Of a stretch of 14,554 nt of DNA, positions 245-14,554 are shown in pieces (position 1 is the stretch's first letter; each line of letters opens with the position of its first letter). Origin of the DNA: Bdellovibrionales bacterium (lineage in GTDB: Bacteria > Bdellovibrionota > Bdellovibrionia > Bdellovibrionales > DASUEL01). The notes under the pieces were generated by a model. The model saw nothing but the letters and a program-made list of their open reading frames with translations. It was not told the origin of the DNA and searched no databases. Made by a program: the position numbers and the translations under genes. The DNA is taken from the NCBI GenBank assembly GCA_050250255.1, contig JBFWOZ010000060.1:1-14554 (forward strand). Direction: 5' to 3'.

Positions 245-592
245 ATGAAACAAAATCGAAATGTCGAAATCACGGGGGAAGTCAAAACGCTAAGGTACAT
301 GCGAATCCAGGCGGGTTTGTCCATGCGACAAGCGGGCCGCCTATTAGGAATTACGGATACGGCTATCAGCCACCTTGAGAATGGGAAAATGAAACTGCCT
401 TTAGCGAGAATCGAACAAATGGTCGTAGCTTATGGAGAAACAATGGATAACTTTTTTAGGACTTCAAGGGCAAAGACATTGCCTTGTACAACAAGAGAGG
501 AATGCGAAAGGCTATTGCGGAGAATTCCCATTGCAAAACTAAGATTAGCTTATGAGGCTCTAAAAAACCTCACTATACTCACTCCCGAATAA
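245..592 (+). CDS. XRE-family helix-turn-helix transcriptional regulator
   Basis: HTH_3 pattern LRYMRIQAGLSMRQAGRLLGITDTAISHLENGK; SD GAAAGGA at 231-237. Confidence 0.88.
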   Translation: MKQNRNVEITGEVKTLRYMRIQAGLSMRQAGRLLGITDTAISHLENGKMKLPLARIEQMVVAYGETMDNFFRTSRAKTLPCTTREECERLLRRIPIAKLRLAYEALKNLTILTPE

Positions 593-628
593 AATTAAAA
601 AAAAGGGGCATCCGTGCGATGCCCCTTT
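593..628. terminator. Bidirectional intrinsic terminator between the XRE and resolvase genes
   Basis: 11-bp stem AAAGGGGCATC (602-612) / GATGCCCCTTT (618-628); the A-run on the left gives a U-tract on the - strand. Confidence 0.85.
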
Positions 629-632
629 GAAA

Positions 633-1358
633 TTAGAAATATAAGCTTATATGATCATCTTCAGGGTCTGTTTTTGTTTTCGCCTCATCTATGGCCGACT
701 CAATCGAAGTTTGGACCTGTTGAACATCTTCGAGTTTCTTTTGTCGCGCAATCTCCTCTTCTTTTTTTATTGCGACCTTTTCTGCGTGAACTGCACCGTG
801 GGAACATTTTGCGATCTCCGCAATTCGTCGGTAAGTCACCTTGGCCTTTAATAGCTTACGAATCAAATCTGAATCGCGAAGCTTTTTCCGCCCAATGTGT
901 TTACCTTTTGCTCGTGCATTTTGAAGGCCTACGCGCACGCGTTCGGCGATCAGATCTCTCTCTAACTGAGAAACAGCAGCTAGAATCGAGAAGATCGCTA
1001 TTCCCACTGGAGTACTCGTATCGATTTTTTCGCTCAACGAGACAAAACCAACATTTTTTACCTTAAATTCAGAGAGCGCATTTAAAAGATGGGTTGTACT
1101 CCTGGCAAATCTACTAAATGCCGGAACTACAACCATTGAGATCTGGTTGTCCCTCACGGCTTGCATCAGTCGATCTAGCCCAGGACGTGATGATTTTGTG
1201 CCGCTTACGTTTTCATCGAGGAAAATCTCGTAGTCCGTAATATTATTTTGCTCAAAATATATTTTGATCACTCGAACTTGAGATTCGAGACCGGTACTTT
1301 GCATATTCGTACTGACCCTACAATAACCGGCAACTTTCTTTTTTTGTGTAAGTATCAT
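633..1358 (-). CDS. Small serine recombinase (resolvase/invertase family)
   Basis: Catalytic YCRVST, then SGTKSSRPGL, SRFARS, ERDLIAERVRVGLQNARAKGKHIGR and a C-terminal HTH (YRRIAEIAKCSHGAV); SD GAAAGGA. Confidence 0.95.
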   Translation of the reverse strand: MILTQKKKVAGYCRVSTNMQSTGLESQVRVIKIYFEQNNITDYEIFLDENVSGTKSSRPGLDRLMQAVRDNQISMVVVPAFSRFARSTTHLLNALSEFKVKNVGFVSLSEKIDTSTPVGIAIFSILAAVSQLERDLIAERVRVGLQNARAKGKHIGRKKLRDSDLIRKLLKAKVTYRRIAEIAKCSHGAVHAEKVAIKKEEEIARQKKLEDVQQVQTSIESAIDEAKTKTDPEDDHISLYF

Positions 1359-8992: not shown

Positions 8993-10384
8993 TTAAGGAG
9001 ATAGAGCTTGAGCTTTGTGTTGAGGAGTCTCTGCATCTTTGCAAGCATATTCGATAAAGCCTTCAGAGGTTTTGACGATGGTGAGATTTTGCTTACAAGC
9101 TGGGCAACTGCGGTTTTGCGTATTCAAAATGCGAGGCTGAATATGATGGGCCGGAACGGGGATTTGAAAACCTTTTAGATTTTCGTAAACGACAGATTTG
9201 AAATTCCAACCTTTTAGAAGGTGTTTTAACACAAAACCTACGCGAGAGCTGACCACGAGTTCTCCGCTTTGAGCGCGCGCACAAAGTCGGGAGGCCAAAT
9301 TTACTTCGGGGCCCATCGCTGTAAAATAGGACTGACTCTTCCCAATAAAGCCTACGATGGCGGGACCCATGGCCACCCCACATTTGACTCCGGTTTTAAG
9401 GCCATCTACATTTTTTAATTTCTCTTGGGTGATTTTTTCAAAGTCGACAAGGAGAAGCTCAAAAAAAGTGATAATGTTAAATGTCCAGTCTTCTTTCTCC
9501 TCGTAGTTAGCAAGAAAAAGAAACCCATCGCCCGTATGAGTAAGCACAATCAACCCACACTCGGTGGCGCGTCGGGAGGCAGCCTCCAGAAACATTTCTT
9601 TGATTTCCCAATCTGTCATGAGGTCTACGGAATTGGAGATGTTAGTTGAAGATGCGATGTCGGCAAACCCGACCACGGCCGTGCTAATCACTTTTTTCTT
9701 TGTAAGTTTCATTCGTCCGGATTCAATTTCTTCACGTAACTGAGGCGGAAAGTTCTTTTTTAAAAATTCACTTCTGTTGAGTTTTTTTAATTCAGCGTCC
9801 ATTTCAAAACGATCTTCTGCCCAATCAACGGCAACGGCATACTCTGAAAAAGAGGTGAGGGAGGAGACAATAATTAAACCAACTAAAAATGATATTTGAG
9901 TGACCGCAAAAGGCCACTCATCCACATTCGTTGTCGAGAGAATAATGACAATTGTTGGAAACAAACTGAGAACGCTACTGATAAGAGTGAACTTTCTATC
10001 AAGGCGGAATATGCGTTGTCCTACTAGAGGAATTAAGAGCAATCCAGTGATGTACATTGATTTATATCCATCATTCTGAAAAACCATGAGATTGATGATG
10101 TTACAATAGAGAACAATGAGGTAGGCAGAGAGATGCTGTGAATAGTATTTTCTTATGTGGCTCCAGCGAAGCGAAAAAAACGCCAGCCACATACTTGCGG
10201 CACCAAATAATCTTAAACAAAGCCAAAGCTCAAAATTTTCCCGAGAGTAAAAATAATCTATAACAGCGTAAGATAAAAAAATAGGAGCGAGGACAAAGCG
10301 ACCCTGCCAGCGCATCATATGAAAGATGTGTCGTCGGATTTGCCTTTGAAGACTTTGATTGACGCTCTCGAGACTCGTAACCAT
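8993..10384 (-). CDS. Membrane-anchored (about 6 TM) class III nucleotide cyclase with a C-terminal Zn-ribbon-like tail
   Basis: Six hydrophobic segments; CTE-like SEFLKKNFPP; metal Asp in GFADI and TGD; FTAMGPEVNLASRL (N-x3-R). Start probably ATG 10384 (the ORF extends to GTG 10477). Confidence 0.9.
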   Translation of the reverse strand: MVTSLESVNQSLQRQIRRHIFHMMRWQGRFVLAPIFLSYAVIDYFYSRENFELWLCLRLFGAASMWLAFFSLRWSHIRKYYSQHLSAYLIVLYCNIINLMVFQNDGYKSMYITGLLLIPLVGQRIFRLDRKFTLISSVLSLFPTIVIILSTTNVDEWPFAVTQISFLVGLIIVSSLTSFSEYAVAVDWAEDRFEMDAELKKLNRSEFLKKNFPPQLREEIESGRMKLTKKKVISTAVVGFADIASSTNISNSVDLMTDWEIKEMFLEAASRRATECGLIVLTHTGDGFLFLANYEEKEDWTFNIITFFELLLVDFEKITQEKLKNVDGLKTGVKCGVAMGPAIVGFIGKSQSYFTAMGPEVNLASRLCARAQSGELVVSSRVGFVLKHLLKGWNFKSVVYENLKGFQIPVPAHHIQPRILNTQNRSCPACKQNLTIVKTSEGFIEYACKDAETPQHKAQALSP

Positions 10385-10393
10385 TAGTAAACT

Positions 10394-10421
10394 ATTATAG
10401 TTTGGTTTCCCTAAGTTGGGA
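10394..10421 (-). promoter_or_regulatory. -10 box and operator-like site for the cyclase gene
   Basis: TATAAT on the - strand at 10394-10399, 9 nt before ATG 10384; TCCCTA-AGT-TGGGA at 10408-10421 covers the spacer and -35 position. Confidence 0.5.
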
Positions 10422-10702
10422 TAAAAGCCTTTTGGCTCTAGACTTCTTTTTTTGTAGTGGTTAAACGAGACTGCCACGATAGGATTTCTCGTGGATCCAA
10501 TATTTTCTTTCCTTATTTGGATGTTTTGCCACCGACATTCTAATGCGACCTCACTCAGCCCCCAGTGTGAGTGCTTGAAATAGGATGATGGTGTCAGGAC
10601 TAAAAGATGGTCGAGTCAGACGAAGGTCTGAAAATAGGATGGAAGCTTTCTAAATGAATACAAAATGTCGATAGAACCTAGAGACCCAACTAGGAGAAAA
10701 AC

Positions 10703-11491
10703 GTGAATTTTTCAGGGATTATTGGCGTTATATCTGCTGCCGCAGTATTCGTTTTTGTCATTATCGAATCTGCGTCGGGACGAGAGATTTTTCTCAACTC
10801 TCATGCGATTATCATTGTAATGGGTGGCACTATGGCGGCCACACTTCTTTGTTTCCCTATAGGAACTTTGGTAACTCTTGTAAAAGTCTTTTTCCAAAAA
10901 ATCATTGGTAAACATAACGTACACCATAACGAAGTGATTGCTGAGGTTGTGGAACTTGCACGTGGTTACATCGAAGATCCGGCTTATTTACAAAACAATT
11001 ACGAAAAGATCAAAAATCCATTTTTGAAAGAAGCCGTTGAGTTAACCGTACAAAGTGGTATCAGTGCTTCAGAGGTAGATGCGATTTTAGAAATGAGAGC
11101 TCTTACACATTTTAAACGCTACGAAGGCGAAGCGGCTATTTTCAAAACGATCAGCAAATTTCCCCCAGCCTTCGGTCTAATGGGTACTACAGTGGGTATG
11201 ATTGCACTCCTTCAAGGGATCGGTACTCCTGACTCCTTTAAAACTATTGGTTCTTCAATGGCAGTGGGACTTGTCGCGACGTTTTATGGTATCGCAATAG
11301 CCAACCTAATTTTTATTCCTATGGGTGAGAACCTTTCAAAGCTCAATAAAGAAGATGAAGTGATGCGTGAAGTGGTGATCCAGGGGATCAAACTTTTAAG
11401 ACTCAAGAGCCATCCTTTGGTTGTTGAAGAGTACTTGAAGAGCTTCCTACTACCAAAAGAACGTCAATCGCTTCCTAAGCAAGCGGCTTAA
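10703..11491 (+). CDS. motA: MotA/PomA-family stator subunit
   Basis: SD AGGAGA plus GTG start; IIIVMGGT, NPFLKEAVEL, PPAFGLMGTTVGMI, MAVGLVATFYGIAIANLIFIP. Confidence 0.93.
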   Translation: MNFSGIIGVISAAAVFVFVIIESASGREIFLNSHAIIIVMGGTMAATLLCFPIGTLVTLVKVFFQKIIGKHNVHHNEVIAEVVELARGYIEDPAYLQNNYEKIKNPFLKEAVELTVQSGISASEVDAILEMRALTHFKRYEGEAAIFKTISKFPPAFGLMGTTVGMIALLQGIGTPDSFKTIGSSMAVGLVATFYGIAIANLIFIPMGENLSKLNKEDEVMREVVIQGIKLLRLKSHPLVVEEYLKSFLLPKERQSLPKQAA

Positions 11492-11502
11492 TAGGGTGAT
11501 GA

Positions 11503-12261
11503 ATGGCTGAACCAGCTAAGAAACTCAATCTTGAAGACGTGAAGAAGCTCAAGCTCGCGGAAGAGTCTTTGGCGGCGACGAGCATTCGTCATAAGCGTGA
11601 ACAGCTTCACGTGCATACAACTTCAGAGGAAGAGTCTTCTTGGCTTATCAGTTATGCCGACATGATGACTCTTCTTGTAGGTTTTTTTGTGATGCTTCAG
11701 TCTTTTTCTAAAATTGATAATACAAAATTCGAACAGATCAAGAAAGCCACGACAAAAGTATTTGGTGGAGAATACCAAGTTCCGTTTGAAAAGTTCTCTA
11801 AGTCGATGAAAGCCGTTGTCGGTGCCTCGGGAGCTGGGGATCAAGTGGTGTTTCATGAAACCGATGCGGGAGTCGATGTGACTTTTCGCGGAGCTCTCTT
11901 TTTTGATTCGGGCTCGACAGAGCTTCGCCAACAAGCAAAAGATCTTCTCAATAGTCTAGTTCCTATTATTACCGAACAAGCCCAAGATTTTGGCATCGTA
12001 GTTGAAGGACATACAGACAACAATCCCGTTTTAAAAGGCGGAATCTACCAGTCGAACTGGGAGCTTTCTAGCGTGCGAGCTTGTACGGTCGTACGAATTT
12101 TTGAAGAAATGGGTTTTGAGAGAACGCGATTAAAAGCACTAGGATGGGGGGACACGCGTCCTATTCTGCCAAATGCAGATGATAGCGGAAAAATCAATCC
12201 GGAGAATCAGTCTCAGAACCGAAGAGTTGTGATTAAAATTTTAAAAGATTTTGATAAATAA
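11503..12261 (+). CDS. motB: MotB-family stator subunit with OmpA-like peptidoglycan-binding domain
   Basis: WLISYADMMTLLVGFFVML (ion-binding Asp intact); FDSGS, VEGHTDN, SNWELSSVRA, QNRRVVI. Confidence 0.94.
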   Translation: MAEPAKKLNLEDVKKLKLAEESLAATSIRHKREQLHVHTTSEEESSWLISYADMMTLLVGFFVMLQSFSKIDNTKFEQIKKATTKVFGGEYQVPFEKFSKSMKAVVGASGAGDQVVFHETDAGVDVTFRGALFFDSGSTELRQQAKDLLNSLVPIITEQAQDFGIVVEGHTDNNPVLKGGIYQSNWELSSVRACTVVRIFEEMGFERTRLKALGWGDTRPILPNADDSGKINPENQSQNRRVVIKILKDFDK

Positions 12262-12282
12262 GCAGCAAATAGAGGACCCATA

Positions 12283-13431
12283 GTGAAATCACTTAGCATT
12301 GAAAAACGAATTGCTTTGGTGGGTGCAATCTTCGCCTTCGCGATTACGTTTCTTGCTTATCCAATCATCATTGGCGCCCTCAAGGATGGTTTTTTAGCTT
12401 ACAGTGTAAATGTTGTTGGCCAAGCAGTACAAAAAAAGATTGTGTCTACTGCAGATGTACTGAATCTTGGAGTAGATAAAGATCTCCTTGATGAATTTGT
12501 GACTTCTAATTACCCCGCACAGGGTTTTTTAGTTGATCAGCCGCACGAAACTCGTTTGGTCTATTTGAAAAAAGCAAATCCCGCACAGTTTGAACTTATT
12601 GACGCTCGACTTTCCTATTACGATATTCTCATTTCAAAAGCTTTTATCATTTTGGTGAGCGTATTCAGTGCTTTCTTGGGGGCCGGAACCATTCTTTATT
12701 TAATGGGGAAGTACGCTCTCGCGCCAATTAAGATTCTTCGAAGAACAACAGAAGACATTTTAGCAGGGCGTTTTGAAGTGAATTCGAGCTATCGAAGCTC
12801 AGATGAGATCGGAACTATGTTCGATGCTTTAAGACGCATGTGTGTGGAGATGGAAACTAAAGACAAGATGCTCGAAAAAATTTCGGAGCTTGCGACAACA
12901 GATGGGATGACGGGCCTTAAGAACCATCGTGCTTTTAAAGAAGAAATGACTCGCCAAATGAGTTTGATCCAACGGCATAAAGAGATGATTGGAATTTTGC
13001 TCCTCGACGTGGATCACTTTAAAAAGTTCAACGATACTTATGGGCATCAGCAAGGTGATGAGGTTTTGAAAACAGTCGGGAAGACTTTAAAGTCTATCAG
13101 TCGAGATTCTGACTTTGTGGCTCGTTATGGTGGTGAAGAGTTCGTTCTGGTTCTGCCAAAGACCGATGCAGTAGGTGTTGCAAAGATGGCTGAGAAAGTT
13201 CGCGCAAGCCTTGAAGCGGCGAAAGTCCCCATGCTCACGGATGTTACAAAAAATCTTTCGGTAACAGCAAGTGTAGGTGCTGTGTGTGTGGATGGCGCTA
13301 AACTTTTATTAGTTAAAGGCGGCGTGCCGATCTCTGTATTTATTGAAGAGGCCGATAAAAACCTTTACGTCTGCAAAAAGGCAGGCAGGAACTGTGTGAC
13401 GACGACTGAGTGGACGCCGGCGGCCGCATGA
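12283..13431 (+). CDS. Membrane diguanylate cyclase (2 TM, HAMP, GGDEF)
   Basis: HAMP LAPIKILRR...SSDEIGTMFDALRRM; TDGMTGLKNHR, DVDHFKKFNDTYGHQQGDEVL, I-site RDSD and active-site GGEEF; SD AGAGGA. Confidence 0.95.
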   Translation: MKSLSIEKRIALVGAIFAFAITFLAYPIIIGALKDGFLAYSVNVVGQAVQKKIVSTADVLNLGVDKDLLDEFVTSNYPAQGFLVDQPHETRLVYLKKANPAQFELIDARLSYYDILISKAFIILVSVFSAFLGAGTILYLMGKYALAPIKILRRTTEDILAGRFEVNSSYRSSDEIGTMFDALRRMCVEMETKDKMLEKISELATTDGMTGLKNHRAFKEEMTRQMSLIQRHKEMIGILLLDVDHFKKFNDTYGHQQGDEVLKTVGKTLKSISRDSDFVARYGGEEFVLVLPKTDAVGVAKMAEKVRASLEAAKVPMLTDVTKNLSVTASVGAVCVDGAKLLLVKGGVPISVFIEEADKNLYVCKKAGRNCVTTTEWTPAAA

Positions 13432-14201
13432 GTTCGTTCTTGAAATCTCTTTTATTAAGTTCCATTCTTATTTCTCACTCGGCTCTTGCGGACGTGGAAT
13501 TCCAAATGGGTTTTATGCTTGTGAATGGAATGCCAGTTTACAAAGCAAAAGAAATTCTTCCCTCTCAAATTCTTGTTTGCCCTAAAATGTGCGTGATAAA
13601 AATTAATGATTCAAGCGTAACAATTCGACGAGCCGGATTTACGACTTGGGAACAATTCCAAGTGATCAAAAAAGAAGTAGTGAGTACGCCAGATCTTTCA
13701 GCGGGCGGTGCGGGTGGTGCCGGAAGCGAATCGGGAGATCAAAAGTCTGATGTAGAAACAAAATCGACTCATCAAGATGAAGCTCCTGCAGTAGCAGAAG
13801 AAAAAGTAGAGGAAGTCGTAGAAGACGGTGCGCCTCCAGATCCGAATCCACGCTTTCCTCCTTCCGCACATCGATATCAACCAAGCCCATATCCTAAAGA
13901 CAACACACTTTTTCTTTTCCAGGCGGGAGAAAACGTCATTTTACGTCCAGCAAAAAAATGCAAGCAGACCTGCGTGTTCGTGGTGCAAAGTGAAAAGGGC
14001 AAAAGACAAGAAGCCCAATTCGCAGGCGGCAAAGACACAACAATCACAATCCACATCGACGCAAATTGGTCAGGCATTGTAAAATGGTCTCTCGTAGACG
14101 GCACAACCACAGTCAAAGGCCAATTCGAAGTCCAACGCCTAAGCCCTCAAGCCTTAAAAGCAGCCATCAAAGCCAACCGCTCCATCGAAATCCTCCCCTA
14201 A
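13428..14201 (+). CDS. Secreted two-domain hypothetical protein, translationally coupled to the DGC
   Basis: ATGA start/stop overlap at 13428-13431; signal peptide ending HSALA; beta-rich N-domain, a G/S/E/P-rich linker, then a beta-rich C-domain. Confidence 0.82.
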   Translation: MSSFLKSLLLSSILISHSALADVEFQMGFMLVNGMPVYKAKEILPSQILVCPKMCVIKINDSSVTIRRAGFTTWEQFQVIKKEVVSTPDLSAGGAGGAGSESGDQKSDVETKSTHQDEAPAVAEEKVEEVVEDGAPPDPNPRFPPSAHRYQPSPYPKDNTLFLFQAGENVILRPAKKCKQTCVFVVQSEKGKRQEAQFAGGKDTTITIHIDANWSGIVKWSLVDGTTTVKGQFEVQRLSPQALKAAIKANRSIEILP

Positions 14202-14221
14202 AAGGTCTCCGGGCCTTTTTT
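14200..14221. terminator. Short hairpin between convergent genes (terminator and/or REP-like site)
   Basis: AAAAGGTC-TCCG-GGCCTTTT followed by TT. Confidence 0.6.
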
Positions 14222-14225
14222 CTGG

Positions 14226-14554
14226 CTACAGCAAGTCAATTTCCAATGGATGTGGCCGCGAATCTATCTTCGGCAAACCAAATATTTTTCGGCGAAATCC
14301 TCTTTTGATTGCAAGATCGTATTCTGGATTTGATGGAGAGTTGAGCCATTTAAGGGTTCCTTCGAGATTAGAAAACAATGTGTAGTCTTGTTCGATCGGG
14401 ATAATTAATCTTGATTGACCTAAGAGGCCCTGAAGCGTGCTGTAAGGGTATTCTTCAACGTTTTGTACAATCCCAGCTTTCACTGGATTTCTATAATTAT
14501 ATTTATATGCGTTCAGAAAATAATGGTGAGACCGAATTTCGGTACGACGAAATC
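14226..14554 (-). CDS. REP-associated tyrosine transposase (RAYT, Y1 HUH family), C-terminal part; truncated by the window edge
   Basis: The frame is open to the window end and reads FRRTEIRSHHYFLNAYKYNYRNPVKAGIVQNVEEYPYST, matching the RAYT/IS200-like Y-x-x-x-NPVKAG...Y-x-W/Y-S-S/T motif. Confidence 0.85.
   Translation of the reverse strand, partial: FRRTEIRSHHYFLNAYKYNYRNPVKAGIVQNVEEYPYSTLQGLLGQSRLIIPIEQDYTLFSNLEGTLKWLNSPSNPEYDLAIKRGFRRKIFGLPKIDSRPHPLEIDLL

Follow-up and report, generated by a model that had tools for sequence, protein, structure and literature searches.

The 14,554-nt stretch of DNA analysed here (the window, which is the entire contig C60 of the Bdellovibrionales genome G000) carries an operon of four genes, motA, motB, a membrane diguanylate cyclase gene and an unnamed gene that we call gene 4, and our analysis points to its motAB pair as the dedicated stator of a non-flagellar rotary machine, a reading to which we give a probability of about 0.6. 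The rotor of this machine would be the predicted ring of a FliF-FliG fusion protein encoded on another contig of the same genome (C50), with the cyclase and gene 4 forming an exchangeable add-on. The domains, the linkage, the MotA subfamily and its retention where no flagellar gene was found are observed; what goes beyond gene content and linkage in this model we infer. An earlier note on this DNA had read the four genes as a self-contained sensor; the conserved FliF-FliG partner escaped it because that gene sits on another contig.

Partner genes were sought by six-frame profile searches in the loci of the best 80 MotA relatives in GTDB, kept from 90 confirmed (some genomes contribute two loci), and in 19 control loci of similar mean length around other motA types, including the genome's own two. 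At least one member of a gene triplet, which we term the rotor triplet, lies within 10 kb in 58 of the 80 subfamily loci and in none of the 19 controls: the FliF-FliG fusion (~600 aa) was found in 55 subfamily loci, a PEGA-TPR lipoprotein in 52 and an outer-membrane barrel of ~200 aa in 50. For the 26 loci without the fusion, all 25 genomes have a match elsewhere, as one long open reading frame (ORF) in 22, split at contig ends in two and as a fragment in one. The same loci hold the gene-4 family in 23 of 80 cases (with a loose model) and a window-type cyclase in three, and in the closest relative, L118, the 9.4-kb contig contains the triplet without a cyclase. Ten large ORFs were scanned, seven of which gave Fn3, TIG, Big_1 or NHL matches, one a glycosyl hydrolase and two nothing.

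In G000 itself, the triplet occupies C50:13337-16280 and is followed (C50:16290-19195, locus L068) by a coiled-coil gene and an Fn3 lipoprotein gene cut by the contig end; this lipoprotein shares 48-55% identity with its counterparts in L115 and L117, and a search of the assembly for its remainder found nothing. The fusions closest to the C50 protein are those of L117, L115, L118 and L120, whose MotAs are among the top 8 of the 80 in similarity to that of the window; the C50 lipoprotein and barrel likewise find their best matches in these four loci. Since the best homologues of all three C50 proteins thus lie in the loci with the closest MotAs, we conclude that C50 and C60 hold two halves of one system.

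The C50 fusion has a signal-peptide-like start, one transmembrane helix (TM) near residue 170 and a helical C-terminal part. Its AlphaFold2 (AF2) model, built from a 14-row alignment with a mean predicted local distance difference test score (pLDDT) of 70, matches FliF RBM3 (6scn) over residues 15-136 as its top match (Z 11.7, root-mean-square deviation (rmsd) 2.1 Å, 99 aa) and FliG-C (1qc7) over residues 468-561 (Z 10.5, rmsd 2.4 Å, 89 aa), while the five Foldseek matches at E ≤0.001 are four FliG or C-ring chains and one FliF model. The profile of the fusion family matches FliG at 2e-17 and SpoIIIAG at 0.005; the L046 homologue (577 aa) has Pfam FliG_C and FliG_M matches, and the C50 protein alone has no Pfam match. 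With ~135 residues before the linker, a single TM and no YscJ_FliF match, the fusion lacks RBM1, RBM2 and the two TM helices of true FliF; we therefore do not regard it as FliF, and it would not hold an export gate. We predict that it builds a ring and that this ring is the rotor. A word-index homology search with the C50 fusion returned only itself, so that profiles were needed, and leads from the Atlas consist of similar clusters, with Bdellovibrionota, Myxococcota, Elusimicrobiota and Cloacimonadota among the phyla most often represented. Separately, G000 encodes a stand-alone 154-aa protein with a FliG_C match (C19:43240-43704, L069) that is unlinked to flagellar or rotor genes, and similar short FliG_C matches occur in several relatives.

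The stator genes themselves retain the core of an ion motor. MotA keeps the channel residues P155, T193 and P206, which are invariant in 123 alignment rows, and MotB has one TM with a conserved Asp (D53), a plug and an OmpA-type peptidoglycan-binding domain, as judged by Pfam and sequence. The window's MotA is 62-64% identical to rotor-linked MotAs and 18-21% to the other two of its genome, which is flagellated (FliG, six full-score flagellins). Aligned to these flagellar-type MotAs of the same genome, it has Ile90 and Gln97 at the positions equivalent to the torque residues R90 and E98, and the charges are thus not kept; the roles of these residues in E. coli MotA are taken from PMC12505986. 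Column counts show Glu at the E98-equivalent in 19 of 19 flagellar-type rows and in one of the 17 nearest MotAs. In both a FastTree phylogeny of 123 rows and a quick IQ-TREE run on 41 of them, the window's MotA nests among triplet-linked MotAs, the 11-row set that holds it receiving an SH-aLRT (approximate likelihood ratio test) value of 95 from IQ-TREE, and forcing it to group with 14 flagellar-type MotAs is rejected (approximately unbiased (AU) test, p 0.010). T162/T163 of MotA, present in 17 of 17 nearest rows, and M64 of MotB presumably resemble Na+/K+ selectivity positions in PomAB and MotPS.

The window's MotA neither groups with flagellar MotAs nor belongs to a subfamily that occurs only alongside a flagellum. 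An FlhA test covered 50 carrier genomes (50 of 74 loci entered), and in four carriers that have both MotA and the fusion (G065, G066, G067 and G076) we found no FlhA, flagellin, rod protein, FliM/N, FliF or separate FliG, while the control search gave five class-II synthetase matches in each. In G066, G067 and G076 the subfamily motA is the only full-length motA, and G067 has a single co-oriented cluster made up of motAB, four further genes, genes for three lipoproteins of 1083-2304 aa and the triplet. The suggestion of the earlier note that this is not the flagellar stator thus probably stands, given the separate MotA branch, the rotor-type partner genes and their retention where no flagellar gene was found. 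Its label of orphan stator is apt for the window, where a Pfam scan of 15 proteins bore out the reported lack of flagellar and chemotaxis families (a MotB_plug match on the ORF at 1703-2170 covers a hydrophobic N-terminus alone), and fails for the genome, which has the flagellum, two other motA genes and the subfamily's rotor genes on C50. As a side observation, motAB in the four genomes without detected flagellar genes (L133, L134, L137 and L149) is followed by a conserved unannotated run that encodes a protein of ~500 aa with one TM, one of 1050-1200 aa and a lipoprotein of 330-370 aa.

Several observations weigh against a dedicated non-flagellar machine. Most carriers are flagellated (FlhA in 44 of 50), and among the FlhA-negative ones G074 has flagellins and G113 has FliF; the four genomes without detected flagellar genes form one MotA clade and so count as one event, their completeness not being given. 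MotA and fusion similarity are weakly correlated over 51 loci (Spearman 0.22, p 0.12), with L114 and L116 combining close MotAs and distant fusions. Rotor and stator lie on separate contigs of G000, and attempts to join C60 to C50 gave no end overlap and no bridging contig, the loose ends near 14200 arising from a REP-like repeat. ORFs of at least 900 aa are moderately enriched, at 44 of 80 subfamily loci versus 5 of 19 controls, and the AF2 model of the fusion has a predicted TM-score (pTM) of 0.32. The R90-equivalent, Ile in the window's MotA, is R or K in 15 of its 17 neighbours, which may reflect a remodelled or a decaying torque interface, and the flagellar-type control group was named from the first tree, not from function. 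Finally, PMC13689555 assigns all three motAB pairs of Bdellovibrio bacteriovorus to the flagellum.

Related modules extend beyond the loci counted above. L375, L376 and L333 are further paralogous modules composed of a lipoprotein, motA, motB, a 575-663-aa signal-peptide/TM protein and a barrel, in which the large protein no longer matches the fusion profile; the 575-aa protein of L333 occupies the position of the fusion and, with an hhalign probability of 2.4%, is not confirmed as one. Two similar candidates in G065 are identified by position only. G055 has at least four modules and G065 at least three. Another MotA subgroup with a long MotB (389-432 aa; L056, L058 and L374) lies beside large lipoproteins, with no rotor triplet in the stretches fetched, and also occurs in G065, where no flagellar gene was found.

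The operon of four genes is confirmed, and its conservation is narrow. ORF calls reproduce the four co-oriented genes with gaps of 11 and 21 nt and a 4-nt overlap, and the same order recurs in G008:C76, G055:C82 and G055:C182 (three copies in two other genomes). The cyclase, 30-43% identical to four orthologues, is laid out as TM, periplasmic domain, TM, HAMP and GGDEF domain. It is intact as described, with its GG[DE]EF site (GGEEF, 283-287), an RDSD I-site (274-277) and the DxDxFK and N..GH..GD motifs; the periplasmic loop that had been called small is indeed small, yet it amounts to a domain of ~80 residues between the hydrophobic stretches 6-24 and 110-140. By these motifs it is a canonical diguanylate cyclase. 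Asp versus Ser/Thr at the PleD D344 position separates makers of cyclic di-GMP (c-di-GMP) from Hypr cGAMP makers (PMC9140294), and Asp259, which we place at that position by motif and which is Asp in five of five aligned sequences, led us to reject a Hypr/cGAMP synthase identity. A metagenome scan gave no added copy of the window-type cyclase, and the truncated gene upstream of the G034:C149 cyclase had no convincing match.

Gene 4 is likely exported, judging from a signal peptide read by eye, and its predicted model has two beta-domains joined by a disordered linker, with the Cys pairs C51/C55 and C178/C182 and an Ig-like C-terminal domain. In fold searches the C-terminal domain matched Ig-like folds of a generic kind (best Z 8.2), and the N-terminal one was barely probed; a word-index homology search returned only the query, a pattern scan of GTDB nothing, and an Atlas search unnamed clusters only (0.90-0.91). 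The protein is a short-form member of an unnamed family (122 clusters); the long forms carry a TM anchor and an N-terminal domain that resembles FecR (the FecR matches are weak). At E 1e-20, a phylum-wide sample of 401 genomes yielded the family only in this order. Across 384 genomes of the order, the short-form profile found full-length short forms in four genomes (six copies). All six follow a TM-TM-GGDEF gene, five of them near a motAB pair and the sixth on a 3.9-kb contig, and the earlier view of gene 4 as the periplasmic partner of the cyclase is therefore probably right. A predicted complex of two copies of cyclase residues 1-200 with gene 4 scored 0.38 versus 0.01 for the best control, with runs agreeing in at least 62% of contacts and a partner pLDDT of at least 62. 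Of 157 solved pairs 116 attained this mark, as did 2 of 215 mismatched pairs; since scores of 0.60 or below are held by only 18 of these solved pairs and by both mismatches, it supports the pairing weakly.

The family at large is associated with a different output. Of its 48 places, seven had already been placed near a subfamily MotA, and the remaining 41 were examined as 40 loci, 33 of which contain a module gene (L339, whose motA is flagellar-type, being excluded); four of the seven misses are contigs shorter than 9 kb. A HAMP-phosphatase profile matches 27 of the 40, and among 21 partner proteins scanned 16 matched SpoIIE, four HAMP only and one nothing; one partner of a FecR-only match is a kinase. 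Because most partners are SpoIIE-type, the cyclase of the window takes a place that in most loci belongs to a PP2C phosphatase; together with gene 4, its likely periplasmic partner, it is probably a signalling add-on that can be exchanged.

We suggest the following mechanism. The exported N-terminal RBM3 domain of the fusion would polymerise into a collar that resembles the S-ring and lies at the periplasmic side of the inner membrane, while its cytoplasmic FliG M and C domains would form a gear ring. Peptidoglycan-anchored MotA5B2 units would push on FliG-C using ion flow through MotB D53; as FliM/FliN were not found in four carriers, the motor would be unswitched. Torque or force could reach the outer membrane via the PEGA-TPR lipoprotein and the ~200-aa beta-barrel, and the large Fn3/Ig surface lipoproteins whose genes neighbour that of the rotor are the likeliest cargo, which the machine would export or move over the cell surface, with gliding as one version; that the output is such export or movement we rate at somewhat less than even odds. 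Gene 4 may bind the periplasmic domain of the cyclase and set its activity, with c-di-GMP reporting on or regulating the machine; in relatives, the PP2C phosphatase would sit in the slot of the cyclase. More tentatively still, Bdellovibrionota might possess a second, flagellum-free rotary engine, a minimal flagellar core of fusion ring and its own MotAB. This engine would export or drive giant surface lipoproteins, perhaps as the gliding or attachment motor, and its interchangeable sensor slot, occupied by the gene-4 family with a TM-HAMP cyclase, phosphatase or kinase, would turn motor load into c-di-GMP; B. bacteriovorus motAB2 would be its stator.

A counterpart of the module appears to exist in B. 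bacteriovorus HD100. The genes Bd3014, Bd3016, Bd3017, Bd3018, Bd3019, Bd3020 and Bd3021 have 577, 325, 194, 302, 205, 319 and 293 codons (PMC3627812 supplement), lengths and an order equal to those of locus L046 from fusion to motA, the match being by length and order, not by sequence. The MotA of L046 is 39% identical to the window's, its 577-aa gene is the one with the FliG_M and FliG_C matches, and L046 showed neither a GGDEF gene nor a homologue of gene 4. We conclude that motAB2 (Bd3020/Bd3021) appears to belong to the rotor-linked subfamily. Bd3014 is listed as hypothetical, and together with Bd3020 and Bd3021 was scored silent in attack and growth phase (2-14 reads per kilobase per million, RPKM), while motA3/motB3 are attack-phase specific at 332 and 207 (PMC3627812). 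In print motAB2 is taken to be flagellar (PMC13689555, PMC11323537), and the pair is absent from epibiotic predators (PMC11870529). According to a 2026 review, the gliding machinery of Bdellovibrio is unidentified (PMC13104615), and one Bdellovibrio paper counts several myxobacterial-type gliding operons (PMC13104615 or PMC13689555).

Other explanations share parts of this evidence. The fusion could be a static ring or channel scaffold, SpoIIIAG- or SctJ-like, with MotAB energising transport or outer-membrane remodelling in Ton/Tol fashion and nothing turning: RBM3-type folds also occur in non-rotating rings, SpoIIIAG, PrgK and EscJ are among the profile and fold matches, rod, hook and export gate are missing from the linked genes, MotA has altered torque residues and the fusion has diverged strongly (mean column identity 18%). 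We think this unlikely, as the FliG-C torque domain is kept, an acidic residue stands at the D288/D289-like position in nearly all aligned rows (by eye), and the stator is flagellar-type with plug and OmpA domain, distinct from the Exb and Tol types (PMC12505986). A slightly smaller chance goes to an alternative set of flagellar stators for special conditions, with neighbouring genes independent of them. Such a role would fit the flagellated state of G000 and most carriers, the report that three motAB pairs of B. bacteriovorus power one flagellum, and the shifts in motA2/motB2 expression in fliL mutants (PMC11323537). Against it stand the genomes in which this is the only full-length motA and no flagellar gene was found, the subfamily's own FliG fusion in 55 of 80 loci, the lost E98-equivalent and the separate branch, as well as the silence of motAB2 while motAB3 is on and the negative two-hybrid tests of FliL with MotA2 and MotB2 (PMC11323537). 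Some cross-talk of the stator with the flagellum is possible.

The sensor proposed in the earlier note, in which the cyclase is under the direct control of stator and gene 4, on the pattern of MotC and SadC, and no rotor is needed, would make sense of the tight operon, its three other copies and the separation of the four genes from the rotor genes in G000, and stator-cyclase coupling exists in Pseudomonas aeruginosa (PMC12288467). It nevertheless seems improbable to us: the cyclase is found in 3 of 80 subfamily loci, all three with the rotor triplet in the same locus, versus 58 of 80 with rotor-type partners, L118 combines triplet and no cyclase, the cyclase pair of G055:C193 lies on the strand opposite motAB, and the usual partner of the gene-4 family is the HAMP-SpoIIE phosphatase. 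Very improbable is an anti-phage sensor of the Zorya kind, with MotAB sensing damage to the envelope and either c-di-GMP or the rotor raising the alarm. A patchy distribution, several paralogous modules per genome (G055, G065), HD100 genes silent in standard growth and MotB matches to ZorB profiles speak for it; the ZorB match, however, reflects the shared OmpA-type domain, the 262-aa MotA has no ZorA match or long tail, and the neighbourhood tables contain no ZorC/D/E-like effector. Membership in Zorya ZorAB was rejected on the latter two points.

To our knowledge, the flagellum is the only known setting in which flagellar-type stators act on a FliG ring. The machine that we favour, of fusion ring and dedicated motAB, shares with the flagellar motor core (FliF MS-ring, FliG ring and MotA5B2 or PomA5B2) the stator plug, OmpA domain and Asp, and its partner shares the RBM3 fold and FliG M/C. 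It differs in that a single protein combines RBM3 and FliG, has a signal peptide of cleavable appearance and lacks RBM1 and RBM2, in that no export gate, rod, hook or FliM/N is linked, in its own lipoprotein and barrel, in the altered torque residues and in the presence of its genes where no flagellar gene was found. A natural FliF-FliG fusion has also been mentioned, in older work that open-access searches did not return, for Chlorobium tepidum, and the subscription literature may thus hold earlier notice of the fusion. The fusion of Chlamydia (PMC4768692), the nearest published case that the searches gave and one with the opposite choice of domains, is likewise natural and found in a non-flagellated bacterium; it is however ~330 aa long, without a SpoIIIAG-like RBM3, with FliG-M only and no stator named in the excerpts, whereas the C50-type fusion keeps RBM3 and FliG-C and has a stator linked to it. 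The Bacteroidota GldLM motor of the type IX secretion system (T9SS) and myxobacterial AglRQS (PMC13104615) are also 5:2 ion motors proposed to move surface adhesins via envelope partners, with different stator families and no FliG-type rotor, and the likeness is one of analogy.

The signalling pair recalls MotC-SadC of P. aeruginosa, YfiBNR/DgcN and SiaABCD, in which a membrane cyclase lies near a stator or OmpA-domain protein with a periplasmic partner; in our best reading no flagellum-bound stator is involved. We rejected membership in YfiBNR/DgcN, the cyclase scoring 115 bits versus the DgcN cut-off of 325; for gene 4 neither Pfam nor NCBIfam gave a match, and it is thus not YfiR by that test. 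The HAMP-PP2C protein as alternative output presumably resembles SiaA, the NCBIfam matches being below cut-off. Open-access full-text literature, the scope of our search, contained no description of this rotor-stator machine, nor do the excerpts of PMC11870540 and PMC12505986 describe it, and it is apparently undescribed. If our reading is true, a rotor and stator maintained in the absence of flagellar genes would represent both a novel type of envelope machine and a naturally occurring minimal motor, with a bearing on the origin or re-use of the flagellar motor. The question of Bdellovibrio gliding would become testable in a genetically tractable predator, since Bd3014-Bd3021 appear to encode the module, and the window would add a signalling layer, namely a conserved periplasmic family with interchangeable c-di-GMP or phosphatase outputs.

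Features of the window (contig C60), with positions in the window
Feature	Position	Strand	Description	Family evidence
motA	10703-11491	+	start GTG, 262 aa	Pfam PF01618 MotA_ExbB 4e-20
motB	11503-12261	+	252 aa	Pfam PF13677 MotB_plug 3e-16 and PF00691 OmpA 2e-15
Membrane diguanylate cyclase gene	12283-13431	+	start GTG, 382 aa	Pfam GGDEF 2e-44 and HAMP 2e-4 (below cut-off); NCBIfam
Gene 4	13428-14201	+	257 aa; ATG overlaps cyclase stop (ATGA)	no Pfam family
Hairpin	14199-14230	+	directly after gene-4 stop; one of 19 genomic copies of a REP-like repeat	
Membrane class III nucleotidyl cyclase-like gene	8993-10477	-	C-terminal CxxC motif	PF00211 1e-9, weak PycC matches
Helix-turn-helix (HTH) regulator and serine resolvase	245-1358		contig start	Pfam

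The hairpin after gene 4 may mark the end of the operon and is outside the motor parts; an Rfam search gave no match, and promoter and terminator scans scored at shuffle level. Counting copies with at most four mismatches, 14 of the 19 copies of this 32-nt repeat form seven inverted pairs 52-113 nt apart. The window's copy adjoins a contig-end ORF (14226-14552, minus strand) with three paralogues (61, 43 and 38%), and from its motif we take repeat and ORF to resemble REP/REPIN elements with a RAYT-type transposase, the ORF having no Pfam match. The nucleotidyl cyclase-like gene is divergent from motA across 225 nt, and no homologue of it stands beside motA among the neighbourhoods listed. The regulator and resolvase at the contig start are probably a mobile-element remnant, and by Pfam the rest of the window encodes RecQ, an esterase with a carbohydrate-binding module (CBM), an M28 aminopeptidase and an HTH protein.

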